DNA from: Labrenzia sp. VG12
Lineage (GTDB): Bacteria; Pseudomonadota; Alphaproteobacteria; Rhizobiales; Stappiaceae
Length of the DNA: 24,000 nucleotides
Assembly (NCBI RefSeq): GCF_002237595.1
Contig: NZ_CP022529.1
Span: forward strand, 2,494,117 to 2,518,116
Direction of reading: 5' to 3'
The notes under the pieces: generated by a model
The model's database searches: none
The model's input: the letters and a program-made list of their open reading frames with translations, nothing else
What the model was told of the DNA's origin: nothing
Program-made: the position numbers and the translations under genes
Shown: positions 1 through 18,442 of the stretch, piece after piece
Layout: each line of letters starts with the position of its first letter
How positions within the stretch are numbered: the first letter of the stretch is position 1

Positions 1-201
1 CAGTTTCCGTGAGCGGTTTCGCGCAGCAGAATGCCGGAAGACACTCATCCCGTCCGACGAAGTCACGCCTCCTGCCCGATTGAACCCACGCTCCATATCG
101 GGAGCGGTGTAGGTGACATAGTCCTGCCAGTCATCTTCCACCCACTGGCGTTCCGCGCGCGCGGACTGCAACTCGGACTTCAGGTCCTCGACGATCCCCA
201 T
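1..201 (-). CDS. Phage portal / head-tail connector protein, N-terminal fragment (runs off the window edge)
   Basis: The minus-strand frame from the ATG at 201 reads MGIVEDLKSELQSARAERQWVEDDWQDYVTYTAPDMERGFNRAGG...SVFRHSAARNRSRKL, 67 codons with no stop to position 1. Its ATG shares the A of the upstream gene's TGA (TGATG coupling). Its position after terS/terL and its N-terminal pattern fit a podovirus-type portal. The family call is from memory only. Confidence 0.5.
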   Translation of the reverse strand, partial: MGIVEDLKSELQSARAERQWVEDDWQDYVTYTAPDMERGFNRAGGVTSSDGMSVFRHSAARNRSRKL

Positions 202-428
202 CAGGCACGCCCGAGAAGTGTAACGCCCGGACGCGAGGCGCTGCCGAAATCGGGAACGCCGAGCGGGCTCGTCAGGTTGGTAGCGCGCGAACTATAGGCC
301 GCGGCCCGCCGTCGCCGGCCGTTTTCCTGAAGGTTCCTGGCCTGGCGCTGAGGATCGGGTTGCCGCGGTGGTGGCGGTGTCGGTTCCGGTTTCGGCTGCT
401 TCGCGCCGCCGCCTCCAAAGAGACACAT
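201..428 (-). CDS. Small Gly/Pro-rich phage protein (75 aa) immediately upstream of the portal
   Basis: ATG at 428 is preceded by GAAAGGAGCACCTC (strong SD). The protein starts MCLFGGGGAKQPKPEPTPPPPRQPDP and ends GVTLLGRA. As I recall, this low-complexity type occurs before portal genes in BPP-1-like/T7-like podovirus prophages. It is translationally coupled to the next ORF. Confidence 0.55.
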   Translation of the reverse strand: MCLFGGGGAKQPKPEPTPPPPRQPDPQRQARNLQENGRRRRAAAYSSRATNLTSPLGVPDFGSASRPGVTLLGRA

Positions 429-632
429 GAGGTGCTCCTTTCAGATGGTTTGGATTTGGGGTTTGGTTTCCAAAGCGCCCCCGCAAAAAAGAATGCCTCG
501 ACGGGTCAAACAATGGTGATGCGTCACCATGTGAGACGAGAACGGGTCAACGATTTTGCAGAATGGATCGTCATGGAAGGCTGAAGGCAGGACCGATGTC
601 CCGGTCATTCAGCCACACTTTTCCAAGGTAAC

Positions 633-748
633 CTTGTAAGCTCTGTTTTAGAGCTGTTTTGACGACCCGTCCAGCTTATGGACGGGTCTCAAATACTTGT
701 TTAGGCGTGACTTTTCGAAAAAACCTGTTCAATCAAAAGGCTCTGCCA
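633..748. repeat. Copy A of a ~116-bp imperfect direct repeat (partner at 9537-9652)
   Basis: Core gttttgacgacccgtcca (656-673) matches gttttgacgagcctgtcca (9561-9579). Core cttgtttaggcgtgacttttc (696-716) matches cctgtttagattgaccttttc (9602-9622). Core spacing is 40 vs 41 nt and the flanks are weakly similar. Overall identity is roughly two thirds by eye. Confidence 0.55.
664..688. repeat. Perfect 10-bp inverted repeat (gacccgtcca / tggacgggtc) with a 5-nt spacer, inside repeat copy A
   Basis: Read directly: gacccgtcca-gctta-tggacgggtc. No T-run follows on either strand, so it looks like a protein-binding palindrome or RNA hairpin rather than an intrinsic terminator. Confidence 0.6.
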
Positions 749-843
749 TTTCAGCCTTGCGCGTTGTTCGCCGATTTTTTTCAAGCAGTCCAGCGAGCGG
801 GCGCGCCTAATTGTCGAGGCCCGTTTTCACAGTCGTAATTGTC

Positions 844-1242
844 TCACTGCGGTCCGCTTTCCAACTCGAAACCTTCGTCGATCCAGCCGGTAATCCCACC
901 AGCCATGATCTTCACGGGACGTTCAAGTTCTGCGAGCCGCAATGCGCCGCGCGCCGCGCCATTGCAATGAGGCCCTGCACAATAGGTCACAAACAGGGTG
1001 TCTTCCGGCCAATGGGCAAGCTTTGATCGTATGATCTTGCCGTGCGGCAGGTTGATGGCCCCCGGGATGTGTCCCTTGGCATAAAGAGCAGGACTGCGAA
1101 CATCCAAGAGTACAAATCCGGGATCGCTTTTCAATGCATCTTGGACATCCCAGCAATCTGTCTCGAATCTGAATTCCGACGCGAAATGTTCCGCCGCCAG
1201 GGTGCTCGAGGCCGCGGGTATCTTGGTAACATTGTTGGTCAT
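844..1242 (-). CDS. Rhodanese-like sulfurtransferase domain protein (132 aa)
   Basis: ATG at 1242 follows GGAAAGGAGACCTC. The sequence includes FVLLDVRSPALYAKGHIPGAINLP and the active-site loop YCAGPHCNGAARGA. The longer ORF start at 1347 lacks an SD and adds non-homologous residues. Confidence 0.85.
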   Translation of the reverse strand: MTNNVTKIPAASSTLAAEHFASEFRFETDCWDVQDALKSDPGFVLLDVRSPALYAKGHIPGAINLPHGKIIRSKLAHWPEDTLFVTYCAGPHCNGAARGALRLAELERPVKIMAGGITGWIDEGFELESGPQ

Positions 1243-1255
1243 GAGGTCTCCTTTC

Positions 1256-1267
1256 CAGAACGTTCTG
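1256..1267. promoter_or_regulatory. Perfect 12-bp palindrome CAGAACGTTCTG in the rhodanese/ftrA divergent intergenic region
   Basis: Read directly. It lies 14-25 nt upstream of the rhodanese ATG within the 78-bp divergent spacer (1243-1320). The operator role is inferred. Confidence 0.3.
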
Positions 1268-1320
1268 TCCCGGAGGGTGATCATTGGCAACTGGCACGAA
1301 AGACGATATACGTAAAAATC

Positions 1321-2325
1321 ATGCCAAACATCTCGGTTTCCGCTCAACTGCCCCCCACGACCGCCCCAACAGGGCCGCTTGTGGTTGCCCTTGTCTATGA
1401 CGGCCTGTGCACTTTCGAGTTTGGCATCACGGCAGAAATCTTCGGCTTGACCCGGCCGGAATTCGGCAATGACTGGTACCGCTTTGCCAGCTGTGCGATC
1501 GAGGATGGCCCTTTACGGGCAGCTGGCGGACTAAGCATTTCTGCTGATCAGGGCATTGACGCCCTCGACCATGCCGACATCATTGTCGTTCCGGGCTGGA
1601 AGAGTGCTGACGCGAATATCCCTGCAAATCTCAAGGACAGGCTGGTCATCGCTCATCGGCGCGGTGCGCGGCTCGTATCGATCTGTTCTGGTGCGTTTGT
1701 TCTGGCAGCGACGGGCCTGCTCGATGGCAAGACAGCCACCACCCACTGGCGTTATGCCGAGCAGCTTCGCTCCCGTTTTCCCTCCATCACGGTGGATGAA
1801 GCATCGCTTTACCGGCTCGAAAACCGCGTTTCTACGTCAGCCGGAAGTGCGGCGGGCATCGACCTGATGCTCGAAATCATTCGGCGTGATTATGGACCGG
1901 ACAAGGCCAACAGTGTCGCAAGGCGCCTCGTTGTGCCCGCTCAGCGCCAGGGGGGACAGGCCCAGTACCTGGAACGTCCGGTTTCCTGCAGGCCAGAGAG
2001 TGCGATCGCCCCGCTCCTGGAAGATGTGCGCCGCCGGCTTTCGGAGAACTGGACAATCGAAGGCATGGCGGCGGGATGCCACATGAGCGCGCGCACCTTT
2101 CAGCGGCGTTTCATTGATGCTGTCGGCCTGACGCCGGGCGATTGGCTGACCGGAGAGCGCATCGAAGCGGCCAAGGAAATCCTCATCACAGGGCGCCAGG
2201 ACATGGAAACGGTGGCGGCACTGGTCGGCTTCGGCAGCGCGCATGCGCTACGCCACCATTTTCGAAAACGCCTTGGATTGAGCCCGACCGACTACCGGCA
2301 CTTGTTTCGCTCAGATGTAGCCTGA
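1321..2325 (+). CDS. ftrA: FtrA / GlxA-family transcriptional regulator (DJ-1/PfpI-like domain plus AraC-type HTH), 334 aa
   Basis: From the ATG at 1321: LVVALVYDGLCTFEFGITAEIFGL..., SICSGAFVLAATGLLDGKTATTHWRY, SAGSAAGIDLMLEIIR, then a C-terminal AraC HTH (ARTFQRRF...LRHHFRKRLGLSPTDYR). It matches the FtrA consensus as I remember it. The upstream in-frame extension to 1042 is antisense to the rhodanese gene. Confidence 0.85.
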   Translation: MPNISVSAQLPPTTAPTGPLVVALVYDGLCTFEFGITAEIFGLTRPEFGNDWYRFASCAIEDGPLRAAGGLSISADQGIDALDHADIIVVPGWKSADANIPANLKDRLVIAHRRGARLVSICSGAFVLAATGLLDGKTATTHWRYAEQLRSRFPSITVDEASLYRLENRVSTSAGSAAGIDLMLEIIRRDYGPDKANSVARRLVVPAQRQGGQAQYLERPVSCRPESAIAPLLEDVRRRLSENWTIEGMAAGCHMSARTFQRRFIDAVGLTPGDWLTGERIEAAKEILITGRQDMETVAALVGFGSAHALRHHFRKRLGLSPTDYRHLFRSDVA

Positions 2326-2503
2326 GCGCTGACAATGCTGCACTTCCGGCCAATCGGTATGAAGCGCTGCCACAAACACCATTCCACGAACATGACCTCA
2401 GGCAATCGTGCGCTTCCCTGACATAGGGTTAATTGCTAGACTAGTCCTCAAATATAACAGCACAAATAAAAGAGTGAAATGTCGAGACTGGCGAGGGACA
2501 GTT

Positions 2504-4330
2504 ATGGCGACAGACAAATTTCACATTTTTCTTATTCGACCAACCAAATATGACGATGACGGCTATCCGATTCATTGGCATAAAACCACAATCCCGGCCA
2601 ATTCACTTTCCTGCCTTGCAGGAATTTCTTTGGATTGCAAGGAACGGCAAGTCCTTGGTCCCGATGTGGAAATTGCGACCCGCGCCATCGATGAAGGCAA
2701 CACCCGCATTCGCCCCCACCAGATCATCCATGAGATCCGGCGCGATGGGGCACGTGGCCTGATCTGCTTCGCCGGTGTCCAGAGCAATCAGTTCCCTCGT
2801 GCCATTGACCTCGCCCAGCCGTTTCTGGCGGCAGGCCTGCCCGTCGCTGTCGGCGGATTTCATGTGACCGGCTGCATGGCAATGCTTGACGAAATGCCAA
2901 GGGACATGCGCGACGCATTGGACATGGGGGTTTCCTTTTTTCTCGGCGAGGCAGAAGGCGGGCGCTTTGACGCTGTGCTGCGAGACGCCTATGCGGGCGT
3001 CCTGAAACCGGTCTACGACTACACCAGGGATCTTCCGTCACTTCCAGGGCAACCGGTGCCTGTCGTTGAAAAGGCACAGGTAGAACAGTCGACATTGGGC
3101 TACGGCAGTTTCGATCTCGGTCGCGGGTGCCCGTTTGAATGCAGTTTTTGCTGTATCATCAATGTGCAGGGCAGAGGCAGCCGCTTTCGCTCGACCGGGG
3201 ACCTTGAGAAGATCATCAGGGATCACGCCAGGATCGGTGTCACCAAGTTCTTCGTCACGGACGACAATTTCGCACGCAACCGGAACTGGGAAGCCTTTCT
3301 CGATACGCTGATCCGGCTTCGCGAGGAAGACGGGCTCAGGTTCACCCTGATCATTCAGGTCGATACCCTGTGCCACAAGATCCCGAATTTCATAGACAAA
3401 TGCGTTAGAGCCGGTGTCGATCAGGTGTTTATCGGGCTGGAAAACATCAATCCGGACAACCTGGCCGGCTCCAAGAAAAGACAGAACAAGATCACCGACT
3501 ACCGTGAGATGTTCCTCGCTTGGAAGAAACACCCCGTGGTCCTGACCGCCGGTTACATCATCGGGTTTCCCAACGACACCCGAGAATCCGTCCTTCACGA
3601 TATCGATGTCCTCAAGCGCGAGCTTGCTGTCGACATACTCTCACTGTCGATCCTCACGCCGCTGCCAGGCTCCGAGGACCACAAGAACGCCGTGGCCGCA
3701 GGCACCTGGATCCATCCGGATCTCAATCGCTACGATTTGACCCATAGTGTGATCCGGCATCCGAACTTGCCCGGCGACGAGCTCGACAAGCTCTACATCG
3801 AAGCCTGGGCAACCTTCTATTCCCCGGACCATTGCCGCACCATCCTGCGCCGCGCGGCTGCGCTTGGAAGCAACAAGAAAATTGCGACCATGAACCGGCT
3901 GCTGATCTATGGAACCGGATCACGGCTCCACAATGTCTTTTCGCTCGACGGCGGATTCTTGCGATTGAAATACCGTCGTGACCGCCGCCCGGGTTTGCCG
4001 GTCGAAAGCCCTCTGATCTTCTATCCCAAACATGCCTTTGAAACGGTGCGCAACATTTTGCTGCTGATGCTCACACGCTGGCGTTACCTGCGCTTCATCA
4101 AGGCACTCTGGAGCGACCCCGGGCGCTTTGACTACGTGGATGCGGCCATTGCACCGGTTGGCGCGGGCGATTTCGAGAGGCTGAAACTCTACACCGCAAC
4201 AAGAGGCGGACAAGAAGCTGTTGCCAATCATCGCAAGATGGAAGCCATCAAGAAAAAGGCTCGGTCAAAAGCACTTGCCGGCACCTTAAAAACGAAAATG
4301 GGTGTCACATATCCTGGCCCGCATTCATAA
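2504..4330 (+). CDS. B12-binding-domain (class B) radical SAM enzyme, 608 aa; substrate unknown
   Basis: ATG at 2504 is preceded by GAGGGA. The N-terminal Rossmann-like region (LICFAGVQSNQF...PVAVGGFHVTG) precedes the radical SAM cluster motif GRGCPFECSFCC (CxxxCxxC). It continues with FFVTDDNF and ENINPDNL, then a ~170-aa C-terminal extension. The N-terminus IFLIRPTKYDDDGYPIHW recalls HpnR-like methylases, but that is a weak recollection. Confidence 0.85.
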   Translation: MATDKFHIFLIRPTKYDDDGYPIHWHKTTIPANSLSCLAGISLDCKERQVLGPDVEIATRAIDEGNTRIRPHQIIHEIRRDGARGLICFAGVQSNQFPRAIDLAQPFLAAGLPVAVGGFHVTGCMAMLDEMPRDMRDALDMGVSFFLGEAEGGRFDAVLRDAYAGVLKPVYDYTRDLPSLPGQPVPVVEKAQVEQSTLGYGSFDLGRGCPFECSFCCIINVQGRGSRFRSTGDLEKIIRDHARIGVTKFFVTDDNFARNRNWEAFLDTLIRLREEDGLRFTLIIQVDTLCHKIPNFIDKCVRAGVDQVFIGLENINPDNLAGSKKRQNKITDYREMFLAWKKHPVVLTAGYIIGFPNDTRESVLHDIDVLKRELAVDILSLSILTPLPGSEDHKNAVAAGTWIHPDLNRYDLTHSVIRHPNLPGDELDKLYIEAWATFYSPDHCRTILRRAAALGSNKKIATMNRLLIYGTGSRLHNVFSLDGGFLRLKYRRDRRPGLPVESPLIFYPKHAFETVRNILLLMLTRWRYLRFIKALWSDPGRFDYVDAAIAPVGAGDFERLKLYTATRGGQEAVANHRKMEAIKKKARSKALAGTLKTKMGVTYPGPHS

Positions 4331-5984
4331 CCGGCGCATTCGACGGAATTTCATCCGTGTCAGATGTCGGTGCAAAGGCCCCGCGCACATTCGCTTGGAA
4401 GCTGTTTGTCACCAAGATCTGTTCACCGATCTCATCGGTATAGGTCAGGGTCATGCGTGGGCCAAACCCTTCGTCATCGGTTCCACCCTTTTTCCAGTCG
4501 CTTCCCGTGTGCGCGTTTGGCATCAATGACCATCGCCTTGCCGTGATGCCAAGTGTTGCCAGAAGTCCCTCCACTTCCTTGCTGATGTAGTCACGGTTTG
4601 TCCCACTCGTGGCCGGGTAGACCTTTTCCACCGGGTGTTTGAACACGACACCCTTTGCCTCGGATGCAAATTCCGTCAGGCCCCATGCCATGGAAAACCG
4701 CGCGAGCGCCAACGCTTCTGCCGCGTCTTCATCGCCGCCCATATCCAGAAAACTCTGCTTCCAGAGTTTGGCATGTTCCTCCAGTGCTTCGGCTTCCTCT
4801 TCGGCGGTCAAGCCAAGTTGACGATACCGGTCGAAGGACGTTTCCCGGGCAGGAACAGCGACCGGTGGCCTTCCTGGGACCGAATGGAATGTATCAACAC
4901 CAGACCGGACGGTTTCCTGATCCAGGGCCAGCTCGACCGGCGCTGCGTCCTGAGCTGACGCGTCGGGAAAAAGCCGTGCGCTTTCGCCGCCATCTGCCTC
5001 CGGTCCCTCCGGCTCACCTGCCTCGCCGCCTGGCGTCGCTGATCCATCCAGGTAGATGAAGTAGCCGCCATATTTTCGTGCGAAATCCTTTTTCCAGGGC
5101 ATGCCCAGCGACCTGGCCGTCGCAAGCTCGCCAAGGATGGAGGACGCCAGCGCAGGATCGCTCCGATGAAGCCGGCGAATATTTTTCTCCGTTGCGCGCC
5201 AATCGACGTCACCGAAGTCTTCGGCAATGTGTTCCGGAAAGACGCTGTCTCCAAACAATTCGTCCCAGAGGCCTTCGCTACCGTTCGACGGATCCGAGCC
5301 GTCGGGAGTTCCCTGCCATGCCTCGTTCAGAATTTCGAGGGATCGGTTGGTCCTGTTGTCGAGGTCATGGATCTGCCCCTTGTGTTTCCGGACAAACCTG
5401 TCTTCAAGGCGCTGATAAACGGCGGCATAGCCAGCCGCATGTTGGCCTGCTGCATCGTCGAAATGCGTGGACAGAAACTCTGAAACCGGCCTCTCGAAGA
5501 CCCTTCTGTTTTCAAACCCGGCCGCGGGTCGGCGCCGCTCCGAAGGTGGCAGGTCCTCTTTTGTAATATTGATGTCGACAGCGGCCAGTGCGGCGGACAC
5601 GAGCCCGTTGCTGTTGACGATCCAGTCTGAGTTGACGTCGCCGATTGCTGCAAGCGTGTCGTAATCCACTTCCGACTGCTCAACCAACTGGGCGAAGAAG
5701 GCCATCTTGAGATATTTTTCTTCAAGATCCCCTCCGCTCTCCAGAACAACGGTGTCTTCCTGAGAGCGTTCGGCGGGCGGAACCCAGTCTCGCGACCGTT
5801 CCGAGTAGGGACCGATTTCCACGTCGATATTCCCGACGACGGACAGCGGCCCAGGTCCGCCCCGAATGACAAATTCTTTTCCTTCGTTATTCGTATAGAT
5901 GATGTAGAGATGCCCGAAATCCTTCGAAGCGGCATCCGTCACACGAAGCTCGATAGTTTCCATTTCAGTCTCCGAAACTGGCAT
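4305..5984 (-). CDS. Orphan 559-aa protein: conserved N-terminal ~140-aa domain, acidic low-complexity linker, C-terminal domain of unknown function
   Basis: ATG at 5984 is preceded by GGAGGCCTGTCTG. This long ORF is the only long open frame across most of this span; the other ORFs there are much shorter (202 aa or less). No signal peptide or TM segment is apparent. The N-terminal region reads GHLYIIYTNNEGKEFVIRGGPG...VDYDTL...NSNGLVSAALAAVDI. The linker GGEAGEPEGPEADGGES is acidic. The GTG at 6086 is an unlikely start. Confidence 0.7.
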   Translation of the reverse strand: MPVSETEMETIELRVTDAASKDFGHLYIIYTNNEGKEFVIRGGPGPLSVVGNIDVEIGPYSERSRDWVPPAERSQEDTVVLESGGDLEEKYLKMAFFAQLVEQSEVDYDTLAAIGDVNSDWIVNSNGLVSAALAAVDINITKEDLPPSERRRPAAGFENRRVFERPVSEFLSTHFDDAAGQHAAGYAAVYQRLEDRFVRKHKGQIHDLDNRTNRSLEILNEAWQGTPDGSDPSNGSEGLWDELFGDSVFPEHIAEDFGDVDWRATEKNIRRLHRSDPALASSILGELATARSLGMPWKKDFARKYGGYFIYLDGSATPGGEAGEPEGPEADGGESARLFPDASAQDAAPVELALDQETVRSGVDTFHSVPGRPPVAVPARETSFDRYRQLGLTAEEEAEALEEHAKLWKQSFLDMGGDEDAAEALALARFSMAWGLTEFASEAKGVVFKHPVEKVYPATSGTNRDYISKEVEGLLATLGITARRWSLMPNAHTGSDWKKGGTDDEGFGPRMTLTYTDEIGEQILVTNSFQANVRGAFAPTSDTDEIPSNAPVMNAGQDM

Positions 5985-6113
5985 CAGACAGGCCTCCGGC
6001 AAACGATGGTGCCGAACAGCAAATGACGTCGTTGAATCAACGCGAAGTCGTGAGGGTTTCCGGGAAAGCGTGATGCGCTGCTTCACTCACAGCGTGCCTT
6101 GGGCGGAACGTTT

Positions 6114-6341
6114 TTAGTACCGTCCTGCCAACTCTTGAGAGCAGTTGATCGGCTGAAGGACCTTGCTCCTACCCGGCTGATAGCTGAGAAAAACCTGCAG
6201 GACTACATCTAGCGGCTTTGCGAGTTGGTCTCGTTTCGCGTCGACATCGCAGCCCCGCTCCCGCAGGAAGTAAAACATCACCGGTGCGCATGTTGGTCTC
6301 GGCCCGATGACCGGTTCATCAAATAGAGCGTGCGGTTTCAA
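6114..6341 (-). CDS. Hypothetical 75-aa ORF (TTG start) between the 4-TM gene and the 559-aa gene
   Basis: The open frame starts 7 nt after the TGA of the upstream membrane gene and has the same orientation. There is no recognisable motif and no clear SD. An internal ATG (MFYFLRERG...) is also possible. It may not be coding. Confidence 0.3.
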   Translation of the reverse strand: MKPHALFDEPVIGPRPTCAPVMFYFLRERGCDVDAKRDQLAKPLDVVLQVFLSYQPGRSKVLQPINCSQELAGRY

Positions 6342-6347
6342 CCAACT

Positions 6348-6755
6348 TCAAACCAGCGAGAAGGCGGCAAGGGCGGCGGCTTGAAACACGCAGTAAAGCA
6401 GCAGCACAGAGAGTATGCGTCTTATCCATGTCACTCTTGCAGCCCTGCGCGGATAGCACAGGGCCAACTGGAGAAGACTGAGTACAACGTCGGCTAAAAA
6501 AAACGCAATTACGTAATTCCGGTAATCGTTAAACAAAAGAGAAATAAGGTCGCGATCAAAAAAGATACAAAGGTACAAATAGAGAAAAAAAGTGGTGCTC
6601 AACCCAACAAAACTGTCAGAAAGGCGACCGATCTTGGAAGTGTCAGGCCCCAGCACCAGGCGGACATTGAGATAAACTCTGAATAGAAGTGACACGGGCC
6701 AGAAAGCCAGGAACCCAAAATACGCAACAACCTGCAGATACTCGAGCCATTCCAT
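6348..6755 (-). CDS. Small integral membrane protein, about 4 predicted TM helices (135 aa)
   Basis: Four hydrophobic stretches: VVAYFGFLAFWPVSLLF, GLSTTFFLYLYLCIFF, YVIAFFLADVVLSLLQLAL and ILSVLLLYCVFQAAALAAF. The gene is markedly AT-rich (e.g. 6480-6620) compared with its neighbours. No family was recognised. Confidence 0.7.
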   Translation of the reverse strand: MEWLEYLQVVAYFGFLAFWPVSLLFRVYLNVRLVLGPDTSKIGRLSDSFVGLSTTFFLYLYLCIFFDRDLISLLFNDYRNYVIAFFLADVVLSLLQLALCYPRRAARVTWIRRILSVLLLYCVFQAAALAAFSLV

Positions 6756-6883
6756 CGCTTTTACCGTTCACATACCTTTGCAGCTCAGTTCCAGCGCCTC
6801 GCCGTCATAACGCCACTGCCAGAGCCAATACATGTTCTCCAATTGTTCCATTGCAATAAATCACAGCATCAAACGCATTGCAC

Positions 6884-7336
6884 CTAAAAATTGTCCTGCT
6901 CCCCACCACGCGCACCGTCGCTCCCGGTCCAGGCATAGATCAGGAAGTCTTCGCCGCCCCGGCCGTAGGACTTGAGCCGGCCTTCCCGTTCCGCCCCAAG
7001 TGCCTCAATCCAGCGATGGGCAATATCGTGCCCACACATCGTGATCACCTGAAGTCGCCGGCAATCACGTTCAATCTGCGGGCGCAACGACAGGATATGC
7101 CGCGTGATCAGCGGCACACAGCGCTTGAATCGCGCTGTTCCAAAAGCCCAGGCCTGCCAGTGTTGCGGATCGAAAGCCGACGCCTGGCTGAAGCCGAAGG
7201 CTGCCGCCGGCTGGCCGTCATACCAGACTGACCAGACCATGCCTGGCACTGCCGTCTCGATCGCGCAGACACCCAGGGCGCGCGTGTCCCAGACCTCCCA
7301 GAGACACGAGATTTCCTCAAAATCCTGCTGACGCAT
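6884..7336 (-). CDS. Phage-associated 150-aa protein downstream of terL (possible GNAT-like fold; function unknown)
   Basis: ATG at 7336. A CTG at 7384 overlapping the terL stop would add LIKDLCLRDVSYIAAN, which looks like part of the domain, so the start is uncertain. The pattern W..WYDGQPAAAFGF...W.AWAFGT...RWIEALGAE...GEDFLIYAW recalls small proteins that follow terminase genes in podovirus prophages. The ORF-track version (to 7747) overlaps terL and is an artefact. Confidence 0.6.
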   Translation of the reverse strand: MRQQDFEEISCLWEVWDTRALGVCAIETAVPGMVWSVWYDGQPAAAFGFSQASAFDPQHWQAWAFGTARFKRCVPLITRHILSLRPQIERDCRRLQVITMCGHDIAHRWIEALGAEREGRLKSYGRGGEDFLIYAWTGSDGARGGEQDNF

Positions 7337-7380
7337 GTTCGCTGCAATGTAGCTGACATCACGCAGACACAGGTCCTTGA

Positions 7381-8961
7381 TCAGAAGCCGCCGAGGGGAT
7401 CGTCCAGCGGCTTCATCTGGCTTCGGCCGGTGTTCGTCAGAATTTTTTTCAGGTCCGCCCTGTCTTTCCATCCCCATGCCTCGACCATCGCATCGGCTTC
7501 GTCCGGCGACGCACCGAGCCGTTCCTTGATGTCTTCCTTGCTCTCGATCAGGATCCGGCCGCCCTTCATCTTCCAGCGATGCGCCGTCAGCTGCGCCTTG
7601 ATCGTGGCGGAGCGCCTGATCGCGACCCCCGCCCCGCTTTTGGGGTGAAGCGCCTCGCGAAACCGCCAGTAAAGCTGGGCCCGCAGATTGTAGAAGGGAA
7701 TGCGGCTGTCTTTCGCGGTCTCGCCGGACTGGGCGGAAAAGACGCATTTTTCGACAGGAATACCGTTCTCACGGGTCAGAAATCCGACCGTATCTCCACC
7801 CCAGCCGCCGGTACAGTCGACCACGATCAGCGCATTGTCCCTCCGCTCCCGGATGATTAGCGCACCGACATCCGCTCCATCCTTGGTATCAGCCCCCTTG
7901 CGGACGATATTCTGTTCAAACCGCCGGCCGTGCAAAGGCTGCAGGACAGTCTTGTCCTTACCACCCTGCGCAACATCCACAGCCAGCACATCCATCGGCT
8001 GGTCCTTGTCGACATTCTCGTCATAGCGCTGAAAGGCCAGGTCAACCCAGTCGGACGGGATCACCTGCCAATCATGATCCTGTCGGGCGGCCAGAAAATC
8101 GCCGGTCTTCAGCGCGGTCCGCATCGGCTCCGGCATCTGGTCGAGCTGCGCATCATAGTCAGCGCCCAGAAACTTGTTGTCCTGCCGCCGTGCGGGAATG
8201 AAGGTGCGGCTTTTCGGCGTGCGCAATTCGCCCTCGATCTCGACCGGTTCCGGCCCGTCAACCCAGACGGTTCGAATGGCGTCGCCATCGTCGATGAAAA
8301 CGGCCCAGAGCAGGTCTCCGGGCTTGACCTTGCCATGGAGCGGGTGAAGCGGGTCAAGCCAGGGTCCGAACCAGTCACTCAGATAATCACCCTGTCCACC
8401 AATTGGCGGATTGGTAGCGATCAGGCCACGGCAACGTTGTCCCATCCGGCTGCTGCGCAGCCAGCCGAGCACAAAGATGATCTTGCGCGGGTCCATCTGC
8501 GCCCCTTCATCGAAGGCCTTCAGGTCATGGTCGCGCCCTTGCCAGTCTTCTTCAGAACCAGGCAGCCCCAGATGACCGAACTCGATCAGGCGTTCGTCCG
8601 GGCCAACCCAGCGTGGCGGATTTCCGGTGATCTTTCCCATCTCCGCCTGCCGCATCAGCGCGTTCATGCGTTCGATCAGCCCCTTCAGTGATTTTAGTGA
8701 TTGCCGGAAGATGGCGGCCTTGTGATGGGCGAACAGCGCCAGGCCGGCGATCAGGTCCGTTTTGCCACCACCGGCGGCACCACCATAGAGTGTCAGATCA
8801 GCCTTTGAGAAATAGCCGTCCGTCTGGGGGCCATGTTGCGGCCGCCAGACGTCGAACTGATCCAGAACCCCGGCTTCATCCAATTTCTTTTGCAGGGCGA
8901 CACGATTGGGTGGCTCCATCCTGTCAATGGTTCTGATCAGTGTTTCCAGAGCCGTCGTCAT
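7381..8961 (-). CDS. terL: Phage terminase large subunit (526 aa)
   Basis: Walker A-like motif LYGGAAGGGKTDL near the N-terminus. A C-terminal nuclease-domain pattern is present (VDVAQGGKDKTVL, IVVDCTGGWG, PDEADAMV). Size and position after terS fit. The start could instead be M15 at 8919. Confidence 0.9.
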   Translation of the reverse strand: MTTALETLIRTIDRMEPPNRVALQKKLDEAGVLDQFDVWRPQHGPQTDGYFSKADLTLYGGAAGGGKTDLIAGLALFAHHKAAIFRQSLKSLKGLIERMNALMRQAEMGKITGNPPRWVGPDERLIEFGHLGLPGSEEDWQGRDHDLKAFDEGAQMDPRKIIFVLGWLRSSRMGQRCRGLIATNPPIGGQGDYLSDWFGPWLDPLHPLHGKVKPGDLLWAVFIDDGDAIRTVWVDGPEPVEIEGELRTPKSRTFIPARRQDNKFLGADYDAQLDQMPEPMRTALKTGDFLAARQDHDWQVIPSDWVDLAFQRYDENVDKDQPMDVLAVDVAQGGKDKTVLQPLHGRRFEQNIVRKGADTKDGADVGALIIRERRDNALIVVDCTGGWGGDTVGFLTRENGIPVEKCVFSAQSGETAKDSRIPFYNLRAQLYWRFREALHPKSGAGVAIRRSATIKAQLTAHRWKMKGGRILIESKEDIKERLGASPDEADAMVEAWGWKDRADLKKILTNTGRSQMKPLDDPLGGF

Positions 8962-9415
8962 CTCCCGGCAGATCCTTTGCGGTCAGAAGTGCCATCACGC
9001 CCAGCGCGATTTCATTCGAACTTCGTGGTTTCAACGCCTCGAGCCGTCCAGCGTCGTCCGGCCCAGCCAGGATGTTCCAGCTTTCCAGCTCCGAACGGTC
9101 CCGCCACCCGGCCCGGTTCTTCATGTTCAGCGCCCAGGCACTGGCGTTGAACTTTGGCAACTCGCCCTGGCTGCCAGCCTTGCCAATACGTTCCCACTCC
9201 AGAAGCCCGCGCCGTGCGGCCGCTTCAAGTTGTTCAGCTGGAAAATCCTCCGGGAACTGCTCCGCGTAGTACCGAAGGGTCTTGCGGTCCGCACCTGGAA
9301 AGCTGTCGATCGAAAAACCGGCGGCAATATGGTCGCAGAATGCGCTGCAAGCCCGCCGCCTGTCTTCCGGTGTCGGCCATGGCAGCGCGCAAGCGCCGCT
9401 GCCCATTTGAGCCAT
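8924..9415 (-). CDS. terS: Phage terminase small subunit (163 aa)
   Basis: ATG at 9415 follows GAGGTGACGC. N-terminal HTH-like region (RRRACSAFCDHIAAGFSIDSFPGADRKTLRYYAEQFP) and WALNMKNRAGWRDRSE are typical of terS. It overlaps the terL start by 38 nt. Confidence 0.7.
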   Translation of the reverse strand: MAQMGSGACALPWPTPEDRRRACSAFCDHIAAGFSIDSFPGADRKTLRYYAEQFPEDFPAEQLEAAARRGLLEWERIGKAGSQGELPKFNASAWALNMKNRAGWRDRSELESWNILAGPDDAGRLEALKPRSSNEIALGVMALLTAKDLPGDDDGSGNTDQNH

Positions 9416-14449: not shown

Positions 14450-15661
14450 ATGTTTCTAGACACCCTGATCCGCCGTAACCCGGCCTTCATCGAAGCGGCG
14501 ATGGCTCTTCACCAGCAAGGCAAGATCCCGGCCAATACCTATGTGCTCGATCTTGACGCGGTGGAAGACAATGCCCGGCTTTTTCAGACCGAAGCGGCCA
14601 AACATGGCCTGAAAACCTTCGCCATGACCAAGCAGGTTGGCCGCCATTCCGGTTTCTGCCAGGCGGTCCAGAAAGGCGGCATCGACCGGTCGGTCGCCGT
14701 CGACATGGCCTGTGCGCTTGCCTGCGACCGTGCTGGTCTCAAGACTGGTCATCTTGGCCATCTGGTTCAGATCCCCCGCCGGGAAGCCGCCTTTGCAGCC
14801 GCAAAACTGCAGCCAGACTACTGGACGGTCTTTTCCGATACCAAGGCCGCGGAAGCGGCCGGCGCGGCACAAGCAGCCGGGCGCGTCCAGAAACTCCTGG
14901 CCCGCATTCAGACCGAAGGCGACACCTTCTACCGCGGACACGAGGGCGGTTTCGCAGCGGAAGACATAGTCGCGGTGGCAGCAAGGCTGGACGCGCTTGA
15001 CGGCGCAGCGTTTGCAGGTATCACCACCTTCCCGGCCCTGCTCTTTGATCTGGAGACCCGCAAGGTCAAACCCACCCCCAACCTTGCCACGCTTAGCCGG
15101 GCCGCCGACGCGCTGGCCAGATCCGGCCGCACCGGCATCGAGATCAATGCTCCGGGCACCACCTCCTCCGCGGTTCTCGGCGCCCTTTCCGAAGCCGGTG
15201 CAACCCAGTGCGAACCCGGCAATGGCCTTCATGGCACGACGCCCCTCCATGCGGTGGAAGACCTGCCGGAGAACCCGGCGGTGCTTTATCTTTCAGAAGT
15301 CTCGCACCACCATGGCGGCAAGGCCTATTGTTTTGGCGGCGGGCTTTACATCGATCCGGTGTTTCCGAAATATCAGGTGCAGGCCCTGGTCTCCGCCGAA
15401 CCGACCGCCAGCCGCTCCGCGCTGCGTGACGTCGAGATCCCGGACTATTCGGCTATCGACTATTACGCCATGATCGACGCGATTGGCCCTAAACCGCCGG
15501 CACCCGGAGACACGGTTGTTTTCGGCTTTCGCGGCCAGGCCTTTGTCACACGCGCACTTGTTGCCGGCATCTCCGGTATCAGCAGCGGAAATCCGGTCGT
15601 AACAACCATCGAGAACAGCTTTGGCGATCTCGTCAGCTGGCCGGGAGTGCACCAGCAATGA
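14450..15661 (+). CDS. YhfX-like PLP-dependent enzyme (alanine racemase N-terminal, fold type III barrel family), 403 aa
   Basis: GGAG lies 6 nt upstream of the ATG. NPAFIEAAMALHQQGKIP...YVLDLDAV...FAMTKQVGRH...GHLGHLVQIP...EPGNGLHGTTP...YCFGGGLY matches my recollection of E. coli YhfX along the whole length. The Lys in MTKQ is the likely PLP lysine. Confidence 0.7.
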   Translation: MFLDTLIRRNPAFIEAAMALHQQGKIPANTYVLDLDAVEDNARLFQTEAAKHGLKTFAMTKQVGRHSGFCQAVQKGGIDRSVAVDMACALACDRAGLKTGHLGHLVQIPRREAAFAAAKLQPDYWTVFSDTKAAEAAGAAQAAGRVQKLLARIQTEGDTFYRGHEGGFAAEDIVAVAARLDALDGAAFAGITTFPALLFDLETRKVKPTPNLATLSRAADALARSGRTGIEINAPGTTSSAVLGALSEAGATQCEPGNGLHGTTPLHAVEDLPENPAVLYLSEVSHHHGGKAYCFGGGLYIDPVFPKYQVQALVSAEPTASRSALRDVEIPDYSAIDYYAMIDAIGPKPPAPGDTVVFGFRGQAFVTRALVAGISGISSGNPVVTTIENSFGDLVSWPGVHQQ

Positions 15662-17423: not shown

Positions 17424-18365
17424 CTAGTGCCGATGCGCACGTGGCGGCTGGCCGAATTCCAGTCGGTACGCCCGTGTCATCGCACTTGAATTGCGATATC
17501 CGCATCGCTCGGAAATCTCCGCAATGCTGAGCCGTGTCAGTTCGACAAGCCTCCGGGCTTCACGCAGCCGGATCGCCTTGTAGACACCGAGCGGTGTCAT
17601 GCCCACCTCCTGCCGAAAGTGGTCTTCCAGGCTTCTCTGGTCGATGTTCAGCCGGGCTGCCAGTTCGGCGATCGTGAGCGGCGTTTCCAGCGTCCTGCGC
17701 ATGAGTGCCGCCGCGCTGCGCACCAGGCTGTCTGCCGTCAACCGCAGACGCGGATCCTGCCGCTCAAACGCGTCGCCATGCATGAAATTGGCGGAGACTT
17801 CGAGTGCAAACAGGGCACCATGTTGCTGTTTGATCAGCTCCAGTGTCAGCTCGAAAGTGGTCGACGCGCCGCCGCAGGTGCAGGTGTCCCTGCCGGCGAC
17901 GACGCGGTCCTCAACCACATCCACTTCCGGGAAGGTTTCGGCAAAGAGAGACAGCTCGTCCCAGTGAATGGTCGCCTGGCGACCGTCCAGGAGACCGGCC
18001 GAGGCCATCAACCAAGCACCGGTATCCATGCCGACAAGGGTCGTAAAACGCCCCCTCGCCGCCCGCAGCACCCTTTGCATGCGGGCACCGGCATACTGCG
18101 TATAGTCGTAGCTCGGCATCACAAAGAGGAAATCCCCGGTCGGCATGGCCTCTGCCCAGGACCGGGTGTCCACCGGTAGCCCGCTGGAAGAGGTAACGGT
18201 GCCTCCGTCCAGGCTGACATGCTCCCAAACGTAAAGCTGCCGGCGGGCAATCGTGTTGGCCGCCCGAAACGGCTCAACGGCATTGGCAAGGCAATAGACC
18301 GAGAACTTGTCGAACAGGAAAACGCAGATTTTTCGGGAAGCGGAAGATTTTTCCGAAACCTGCAT
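17424..18365 (-). CDS. GlxA-family (DJ-1/PfpI-like plus AraC HTH) transcriptional regulator, 313 aa; CdhR/GbdR-like
   Basis: ATG at 18365 follows TTGGAGAAAAACC. ICVFLFDKFSVYCLANAVEPFRAAN, TGAWLMASAGLLDGRQATIHW, and a C-terminal HTH (LSIAEISERCGYRNSSAMTRAYRLEFGQPP). It is divergent from the acyl-CoA operon. Confidence 0.85.
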   Translation of the reverse strand: MQVSEKSSASRKICVFLFDKFSVYCLANAVEPFRAANTIARRQLYVWEHVSLDGGTVTSSSGLPVDTRSWAEAMPTGDFLFVMPSYDYTQYAGARMQRVLRAARGRFTTLVGMDTGAWLMASAGLLDGRQATIHWDELSLFAETFPEVDVVEDRVVAGRDTCTCGGASTTFELTLELIKQQHGALFALEVSANFMHGDAFERQDPRLRLTADSLVRSAAALMRRTLETPLTIAELAARLNIDQRSLEDHFRQEVGMTPLGVYKAIRLREARRLVELTRLSIAEISERCGYRNSSAMTRAYRLEFGQPPRAHRH

Positions 18366-18442
18366 GGTTTTTCTCCAAAACGGCACACTGACGTTTCCCT
18401 GCTTGTCTCACTCTCTGTTGCAAGAGGCAAGAGGAGATCCCG

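Follow-up and report, generated by a model that had tools for sequence, protein, structure and literature searches.

The 24,000-nucleotide stretch of Labrenzia sp. VG12 analysed here, which we call the window (NZ_CP022529.1, 2,494,117–2,518,116; all coordinates below are window positions, and L-numbers denote comparison loci), carries a pair of minus-strand genes within a phage-type operon. One encodes a 135-aa protein whose four hydrophobic segments lie at residues 7, 48, 80 and 111 (the four-transmembrane or 4-TM gene, 6348–6755), and the other, beyond a spacer of 384 nt (5964–6347), encodes a protein of 552 aa built in three parts (p552, 4305–5963, stop codon 4305–4307). Both are co-oriented with the terminase genes terS and terL and with a phrog_308-type gene, and because a conserved 75-aa gene and the portal gene lie at the left edge of the window, the module has the terminase on one side and the portal on the other, within a structural operon of podovirus type. 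An initial annotation of this DNA had recognised the small 4-TM protein, the shared orientation with the phage operon, and an accessory cargo module that pairs a membrane protein with an enzyme-like orphan, all of which hold. It had also named no family for its three open reading frames (ORFs), namely the 4-TM gene, a 75-aa ORF within the spacer and the large gene, and none of them has a match in Pfam, PHROG or NCBIfam scans. For p552 there is likewise no Pfam family at E ≤ 1, no match among solved structures in a single-sequence search and no tblastn match among 50,697 phage records.

The paired genes and their boundaries

The p552 gene most likely begins at ATG 5963 (METIELR), so that the protein starts METIELRVTDAAS. 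The GGAG before this ATG is invariant in the window, L004 and L002, and distant relatives of the N-terminal domain all begin at the equivalent residue. The initial annotation had described a 559-aa protein with a strong Shine–Dalgarno sequence, starting at ATG 5984; neither that ATG nor the GGAGG before it is conserved. Since ATG 5963 is the conserved start, the long orphan frame reaching down to 4305 stands with a length of 552 rather than 559 aa. The translation has no N-terminal hydrophobic stretch, hence no signal peptide by eye, which would fit cytoplasmic loading of p552 into capsids.

In comparison with L004 and the strongly diverged L002, only the last ~17 nt of the spacer (GGAG plus ATG) are invariant. 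The 75-aa ORF within it (6114–6341, TTG start), previously counted as a member of the module, is most likely not a gene, because its frame is broken by 1-nt indels in the ~96%-related L004 and its sequence is unrecognisable in a DNA alignment with L002; it is also not called as a gene in L001 or L002. The module had been described as AT-rich, a label that suits the 4-TM gene and the spacer before it (GC 0.48 in each) and does not suit the large gene (0.575, against 0.60 for the window). Scans of the region (3800–7600 / 4000–7600) found no Rfam family, no promoter-like site and a single terminator-like hairpin, against 4.0 expected by chance.

The 4-TM and p552 genes are strictly paired and have moved as a unit between slots. 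Homologues of the 4-TM gene, encoding 126–145 aa with the window's own copy, stand directly upstream of genes with both the N- and C-terminal domains of p552 in L001, L002, L004 and L009, which makes five of five loci with the window, and their two sequence subgroups are homologous to each other (hhalign probability 97.4%, E 9e-12). In L009 the pair occupies a different slot, next to host genes, and L005 holds an orphan 4-TM copy without an N-domain gene. The co-occurrence check proposed for the three genes is thereby borne out for the 4-TM and p552 genes and fails for the non-conserved 75-aa ORF. Both members of the pair are under purifying selection, with dN/dS values of 0.28 and 0.14 for the 4-TM gene and 0.19–0.23 for p552.

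Four full-length homologues of p552 were found among 5.8 billion clustered proteins in a word-indexed search (92, 67, 42 and 42% identity), the named ones being from Roseibium, and the reading frames are intact in all five loci despite divergence down to 42% identity. When a profile of these five sequences was run against 1.84 billion representatives, it returned 259 relatives that split cleanly into matches to an N-terminal domain or to a C-terminal domain. The three-part build seen in the initial annotation is thus upheld: a conserved N-domain (residues 1–168, 5460–5963), the proposed effector or enzyme head; a variable, helical and partly acidic low-complexity linker (residues 169–368, 4860–5459) with no conservation beyond the five close homologues; and a conserved C-domain (residues 369–545, 4329–4859), the proposed virion-incorporation module. 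By dN/dS the N-domain is the most constrained part (0.08–0.11, against 0.26–0.31 for the linker and 0.25–0.26 for the C-domain). An AF2 model of the full-length protein, built from five sequences, was unusable (pLDDT 43.8, ~30 over the N-domain).

Two domains with separate relatives

The N-domain spans ~160 aa, and in an alignment of 19 sequences H18 (codon 5910–5912), G28, E30, R34, G36, D59, Y101, S118 (codon 5610–5612) and N119 are invariant, a pattern that makes the domain probably catalytic. Among these 19 members there is no Pfam match at E ≤ 10 beyond one weak single-sequence match of one member to Lnb_N (E 0.03), which is only a lead; Lnb_N we take to be a family with an H...NC motif. 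There is also no PDB match: among solved structures the N-domain profile recurrently hit short stretches of de novo designed TIM barrels and nothing else, and these hits we treated as spurious. By eye the N-domain has the same motif order as PPPDE, Peptidase_C97 and LRAT proteins (His in a strand, G-x-E-F..GG, a helix, Y-[DN]-x-[LF], and N-[C/S]-N at the start of a helix), a resemblance already raised in the initial annotation. Profile tests lend homology no support: the 19 members have no PF05903 or LRAT match in Pfam at E ≤ 10, DESI1 and DESI2 reached −2 bits in an hmmsearch with the N-domain profile, and hhalign against two PPPDE alignments gave probabilities of 0.1% and 0.05%, the second of these alignments being shallow, as the DESI1 search returned only close vertebrate orthologues. 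Unlike the Cys–His dyad of PPPDE proteins, the N-domain pairs its invariant H18 with a candidate nucleophile that is always Ser (S118) and never Cys. Two further readings were dropped by eye, that of an ADP-ribosyltransferase (R-S-E), for which an ExE motif is missing after the NSNS motif, and that of a pore-former, for which there is no hydrophobic hairpin.

Outside Roseibium the N-domain always begins at residue 1 and precedes RTX repeats, Hint modules or cadherin/Ig repeats. HemolysinCabind is present in nine of 21 N-domain proteins, in keeping with the initial annotation, which had placed such a domain at the start of calcium-binding-repeat proteins of Rhizobiales; the RTX relatives found here come from metagenomes. 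Of 27 further metagenome loci with the N-domain (L041–L067), none has the C-domain or the 4-TM family; upstream of the N-domain gene, at least 11 encode a small protein bearing a signal peptide or transmembrane anchor, and these small exported proteins belong to several (at least three) unrelated families. Across L025, L024 and L041–L067, the RTX, cadherin and Hint proteins with this head are usually preceded by a small exported-protein gene. In L025 (116–6266) the N-domain gene is followed by genes for a type I secretion system (T1SS) ABC transporter and an HlyD-like protein, and the P0124 contig also bears Replic_Relax and TrwB-type genes. In their gene arrangement these non-phage loci look like secreted toxin–immunity operons. 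A third setting is found in L011 (15676–16584), where a divergent N-domain copy ends in a ~40-aa tail that it shares with the scaffold-like protein g291 of the element described below. Because the same head is thus mounted on three export or loading devices (RTX/T1SS proteins, the C-domain and the scaffold-type tail), the N-domain would be the payload, and an envelope target is indicated.

The C-domain comprises ~165 aa, and a 41-sequence alignment shows E77, T117, D120 and R134 as invariant or near-invariant polar residues together with several conserved Tyr. An AF2 model from this alignment has a confident alpha/beta fold (pLDDT 92.3). Foldseek found no solved-structure relative of the model (best E 0.23), the best match in BFVD is an uncharacterised 701-aa Caudovirales protein (E 6e-4), and the C-domain profile has no match among the sequences of solved structures; a protein search with the 41-sequence alignment returned only three matches and was uninformative. 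In profile searches the E-values reach down to 1e-69 for the closest carriers, as we call the proteins that bear this domain, and run from 1e-22 to 1e-8 for phage-type proteins of 800–1100 aa, with further HMM matches in L021, L022 and L003. The domain lies near the C-terminal end of proteins of 450–1150 aa, most relatives having 700–1150 aa. The N-terminal parts of 42 scanned C-domain proteins match SLT (7), Phage_lysozyme2 (3), Peptidase_M15_3 (3), VanY (2), Phage_lysozyme (2), Tlde1 (1) and YkuD (1), and non-enzymatic parts of the relatives match phrog_1044 and phrog_10475.

Gene order indicates where this domain belongs in ordinary phages. In three metagenomic podovirus contigs that match the p552 C-domain by tblastn (L038–L040), the genes follow one another as portal, scaffold, capsid, a 189-aa protein, tail tube, a gp14-like protein, the C-domain protein, a 1025-aa protein and fibre, and the C-domain protein (699–788 aa) lies between the gp14-like gene of 183 aa and the 1025-aa gene. 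Microcystis phage Mwe-JY08 has its C-domain gene between genes for 171 and 1500 aa. From the gene order in these contigs and in Mwe-JY08 we assign the C-domain to the internal core protein at the gp15 position. The initial annotation had named, as a finding that would count against its own reading, homologues that prove to be ejection proteins of lytic relatives, and this holds for the C-terminal third only: homology to the T7 gp14-gp15-gp16-type core proteins of podoviruses is confined to residues 369–545. As in those core proteins, the relatives of the C-domain carry SLT, lysozyme or M15 domains. Unlike them, p552 lies between terL and portal, is much shorter and has a head that is not a known muralytic domain, and the slot after the gp14-like gene is held by another protein, which we call g492-like. 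The homology of the C-domain to ejection proteins moves the reading of this locus from intracellular defence or exclusion to a virion-packaged, ejected effector with a protective partner.

A Stappiaceae element with variable carriers

Scans of genome and viral collections for the C-domain recovered 34 loci, nearly all from Roseibium, Labrenzia or Stappia, and all except three distant contigs share one element. Its genes run from terS, terL, the phrog_308 gene, the 75-aa gene, portal, Bbp19, the scaffold-like g291 and capsid to g119, g195, an 810-aa tail protein, a gp14-like protein, the g492-like protein and a collagen-like fibre. The C-domain gene occupies the slot between terL and portal in the window, L001, L002, L004, L008, L010, L011 and L019; it lies upstream of terS in L005, L009, L013–L015, L017 and L023, and between capsid and g119 in L006, L007, L016, L018 and L020. 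Only in the divergent L021 and L022 is the domain fused within the g492-like protein, which there follows the gp14-like gene. Each element has one to three carriers. They share only the C-domain, over ~155 aa at ~50% identity and with a sharp homology boundary, and the N-terminal architectures, or heads, that stand in front of it in Roseibium, Labrenzia and Stappia are of at least four unrelated kinds.

The genes upstream of the carriers change with the head. Heads of the p552 type have the 4-TM gene, whereas type I carriers (750–860 aa) have one to six tandem, diverged genes for soluble proteins of ~160 aa upstream in 14 of 14 loci, and two other carrier types, both in L005, each have their own multi-TM gene. 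The ~160-aa genes, which start MADFDDITGWREEL..., form tandem arrays of up to six in L008 (4677–8219), L011, L015–L017, L028, L032, L036 and L037; they have no Pfam or PADLOC match. A truncated N-terminal fragment of a type I carrier is present in L016, and the carrier gene is split in L010. The N-terminus of type I carriers looked PIN-like by eye; Pfam gives this no support and we make no claim of it. Co-variation of head type and upstream gene, arrays and orphans together form the usual grammar of toxin–immunity loci, and by this analogy the small upstream genes would be cognate immunity genes.

A second candidate tag is the ~40-aa tail of g291. Between g291 and the capsid gene lie one to three extra genes whose products end in this tail (consensus NPFD..P.LK.Q.ELLE.NP..A.QLI.AAGRDP.LFG); examples are L004 17996–18973, L008/L010 ~14495–15442, L007 1811–3112 and 5751–6719, L016 1121–2149 and the N-domain gene of L011. 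Other tail-bearing proteins match Glucosaminidase (E 2e-17) and Hydrolase_2 (E 2e-8), with weak Tlde1 and Ntox44 matches. The tail looks like a natural capsid-targeting peptide.

Within the window, the co-oriented operon is headed by a terS-like gene (8924–9415, minus; phrog_2, E 2e-21), followed by terL (7381–8961, minus; phrog_979, E 8e-28) and, directly upstream of the module, by the ~197-aa gene matching phrog_308 'internal virion protein' (6884–7477, minus; E 6e-12), whose start was set by comparison with L004. This gene shares ~97 nt with the 3' end of terL, read in a different frame, an overlap kept in all related loci. At the left edge, the conserved 75-aa gene (204–428, minus), which begins MCLFGGGGAKQPKPEPTPPPP... 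and is kept at 81–92% in most elements and at 56% in the divergent L021, directly precedes the T7-type portal gene, of which the first 67 codons (1–201, minus) fall inside the window; the portal of L001 and L002 matches PF12236 Head-tail_con in Pfam. Three host-like genes lie inside the structural operon. A B12-type radical SAM gene (2408–4330, plus) converges on p552 with a 26-nt overlap, an AraC/DJ-1 regulator lies within 1042–2325 (plus), and a rhodanese gene occupies 844–1242 (minus). The AraC/DJ-1 gene probably starts further downstream, since the listed ORF overlaps the opposite-strand rhodanese ORF; the window has a second regulator gene of this type at 17424–18386 (minus). In several loci the radical SAM gene adjoins the element with 77–95% conservation, and L005 and L014 have fragments of it; its product weakly matches the PADLOC candidate-defence model PDC-M51A (E 3e-7).

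The T7-like structural element (window 1–9415 and loci L001–L037) is kept among species of Roseibium, Labrenzia and Stappia, with amino-acid identities of 82–89% for terL and ~91–93% for the capsid, and a flanking host permease is 86–90% identical in eight loci. The similar divergence of terL and this permease, together with the embedded host-like genes, suggests long vertical inheritance. The neighbourhood of terS showed no genes for replication or lysogeny. These features suggest that the element may be domesticated, resembling a gene transfer agent or producing particles, rather than an ordinary prophage.

A proposed packaged effector and the alternatives

The interpretation that we favour, with about even confidence, is that p552 is a polymorphic effector which a T7-like, phage-derived element packages in its capsid and ejects, and that the 4-TM protein is its cognate membrane immunity or exclusion partner. 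In such a scheme p552 would be made in the cytoplasm, consistent with the absence of a signal peptide by eye, and its C-domain, taken from a podoviral ejectosome protein of the gp15 position, would dock it in the procapsid. On ejection the protein would pass, along with the core proteins, into the envelope of the cell to which the particle is bound, where the N-domain head would act enzymatically. In cells that carry the element, the 4-TM protein would sit in the inner membrane and neutralise the head, so that immunity would amount to exclusion of incoming particles. A broader version of this proposal, which we offer as speculative and unlikely, is that Stappiaceae carry a vertically inherited T7-like particle turned into a contact-independent delivery device for protein toxins, with swappable heads loaded through either the C-domain or the ~40-aa tail and an immunity gene for each effector in the same operon. 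There, p552 and the 4-TM protein would be one cassette among others, and the head a new envelope-targeting toxin fold shared with T1SS-exported, RTX bacteriocin-like proteins. The toxin, exclusion or defence logic expected in the initial annotation fares accordingly: it fits swappable heads that each have their own upstream family, and for a defence system proper there is no PADLOC match.

The closest concept, by analogy, is the MuF polymorphic toxin family. Jamet et al. 2017 (PMC5576092) describe MuF toxins of temperate phages as a constant virion-protein domain fused to variable toxin domains, with adjacent immunity genes, and propose delivery by the phage particle. The p552 family likewise has a constant virion domain, variable heads and adjacent putative protective genes, and like MuF toxins p552 lies in the packaging region, between terL/phrog_308 and portal, in the window, L001, L002 and L004. 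No MuF domain is found in p552 (Pfam E ≤ 1). The two systems also differ in that the constant part of p552 is C-terminal and comes from a podovirus core protein of the gp15 position rather than from the SPP1 gp7/Mu F head protein, in that the variable part is N-terminal with the candidate immunity genes upstream, and in that the hosts are marine Alphaproteobacteria rather than Firmicutes.

Carriers also resemble polymorphic toxins at large in having a constant domain, at least four unrelated heads and a sharp boundary, with reversed polarity (the constant part being C-terminal). Their upstream families co-vary with the head (4-TM genes in 5/5 loci, ~160-aa arrays in 14/14), and an orphan 4-TM gene and carrier fragments exist; these families would be putative immunity genes. 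In the general definition attributed to Zhang et al. 2012, such toxins reportedly combine a constant trafficking domain with alternative, unrelated toxin domains across a sharp homology boundary, and are said to have an adjacent cognate immunity gene that co-varies with the toxin domain, orphan cassettes, and a toxicity neutralised by the partner. Non-structural proteins that a dedicated targeting element brings into phage heads for delivery to the recipient cell are represented by T4 Alt and IPI, with a capsid-targeting sequence, and by the P1 Dar proteins. Such proteins help the infecting phage to counter host defence and have no swappable heads with cognate protective genes, and their targeting elements are unrelated to the tags described here. 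With the RTX/T1SS secreted proteins and RTX-type bacteriocins of Alphaproteobacteria, p552 shares an N-domain that starts at residue 1 and a small gene upstream, there for an exported protein; unlike them, p552 has no HemolysinCabind match in Pfam and no T1SS genes near it in the window, and its C-terminal part is a phage domain. The pair also differs from a holin–endolysin cassette, since p552 has no muralytic domain match and the pair does not lie in a lysis module; in L005, spanin-like genes and a gene for a 203-aa protein that resembles a lysozyme by eye are found elsewhere. No match in PADLOC-DB 2.0 at E ≤ 0.01 was obtained for p552, the 4-TM protein, the 75-aa ORF, the phrog_308-like protein or related carriers. 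Judged by these comparisons of sequence, p552 belongs neither to MuF, PPPDE or RTX nor to any PADLOC family.

Several observations weigh against the packaged-effector interpretation. The putative immunity gene lies upstream, 384 nt away, where classical polymorphic toxin loci have it downstream and abutting, and a 4-TM protein is an unusual type of immunity protein for a peptidoglycan enzyme. Partners of the N-domain outside Roseibium belong to several families, none homologous by sequence to the 4-TM protein. The N-domain has no recognisable fold or family, and the terms enzyme and toxin rest on its conserved residues and its context. Given its conserved polar residues, the C-domain might be catalytic in its own right or a cell-wall binder instead of a docking module, and in the main Roseibium group the protein at the gp15 position has no C-domain, so that the carrier may simply supply an essential structural piece in trans.

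This last point leads to the main rival explanation, in our judgement unlikely, which takes p552 as an ordinary structural ejection protein that serves the element's own envelope crossing by supplying in trans the C-domain lost from the gp15-position protein, with the N-domain as another wall-penetration enzyme and the 4-TM protein as an unrelated moron or membrane helper. C-domain homologues are indeed core proteins that often carry peptidoglycan hydrolases, the g492-like protein lacks the C-domain in the main group and is fused to it in L021 and L022, and at least one carrier is present in every recovered locus, although this follows by construction, the scans having selected for the C-domain. 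Carrier variability and cognate gene families argue against this explanation: the carriers of closely related elements differ in number (one to three), slot and head type, a penetration enzyme needs no head-specific small-gene family with arrays of up to six, orphans and fragments, and in L009 p552 and the 4-TM gene have changed slot as a pair. It is very doubtful, too, that the C-domain is the active part, for example as a new wall-binding or wall-cleaving domain, with accessory heads and upstream genes for chaperones or assembly factors. Its invariant or near-invariant E77, T117, D120 and R134 and several Tyr, its regular joining to muralytic domains and its confident alpha/beta fold without a known structural relative would suit such a role. 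The N-domain, however, is the more constrained of the two (dN/dS 0.08–0.11 versus 0.25–0.26), has its own invariant polar set and stands outside phages without the C-domain, and diverged tandem arrays and orphan copies of small genes are untypical of chaperones.

Membrane proteins paired with orphan enzyme-like proteins are common in defence and exclusion systems, and the pair stands in a cargo position of a phage-type operon with a 4-TM gene of lower GC. We nevertheless regard it as quite improbable that the two form an intracellular anti-phage defence, abortive-infection or superinfection-exclusion module in which p552 acts in the lysogen and the membrane protein is sensor or effector: neither the two proteins nor the related carriers match a PADLOC family, and such a module leaves unexplained why the constant part is a domain of an ejectosome protein, why the same head stands on T1SS/RTX secreted proteins and why it bears a scaffold-type tail in L011. 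That the locus is the decaying remnant of a defective prophage with no current function seems extremely improbable. The structural operon is interrupted by host-like genes, some carriers are split or truncated (L010 and L006, for example), and replication and lysogeny genes were not seen beside terS; against decay stand dN/dS values well below 1 for p552, the 4-TM gene and terL, intact frames in five loci diverged to 42% identity, and conservation of terL across species (82–89%) like that of the flanking host permease (86–90%).

If the packaged-effector interpretation is true, phages would have a second way, independent of MuF, of carrying polymorphic effectors, with a podovirus ejectosome domain as the constant delivery module, and such effectors, which as MuF toxins are mainly described in Firmicutes, would extend to marine Alphaproteobacteria. 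The N- and C-domains are two domains outside current libraries. The N-domain, apparently catalytic from its conserved residues, heads both RTX/T1SS secreted proteins and phage cargo, while the C-domain may be a natural capsid- or ejectosome-loading tag and could serve for loading cargo into podovirus capsids. The strict pairing of p552 with a small membrane protein suggests direct hypotheses of toxicity and rescue. The conserved element embedded in Stappiaceae genomes, host-like in character, is a candidate domesticated element and of interest in itself.

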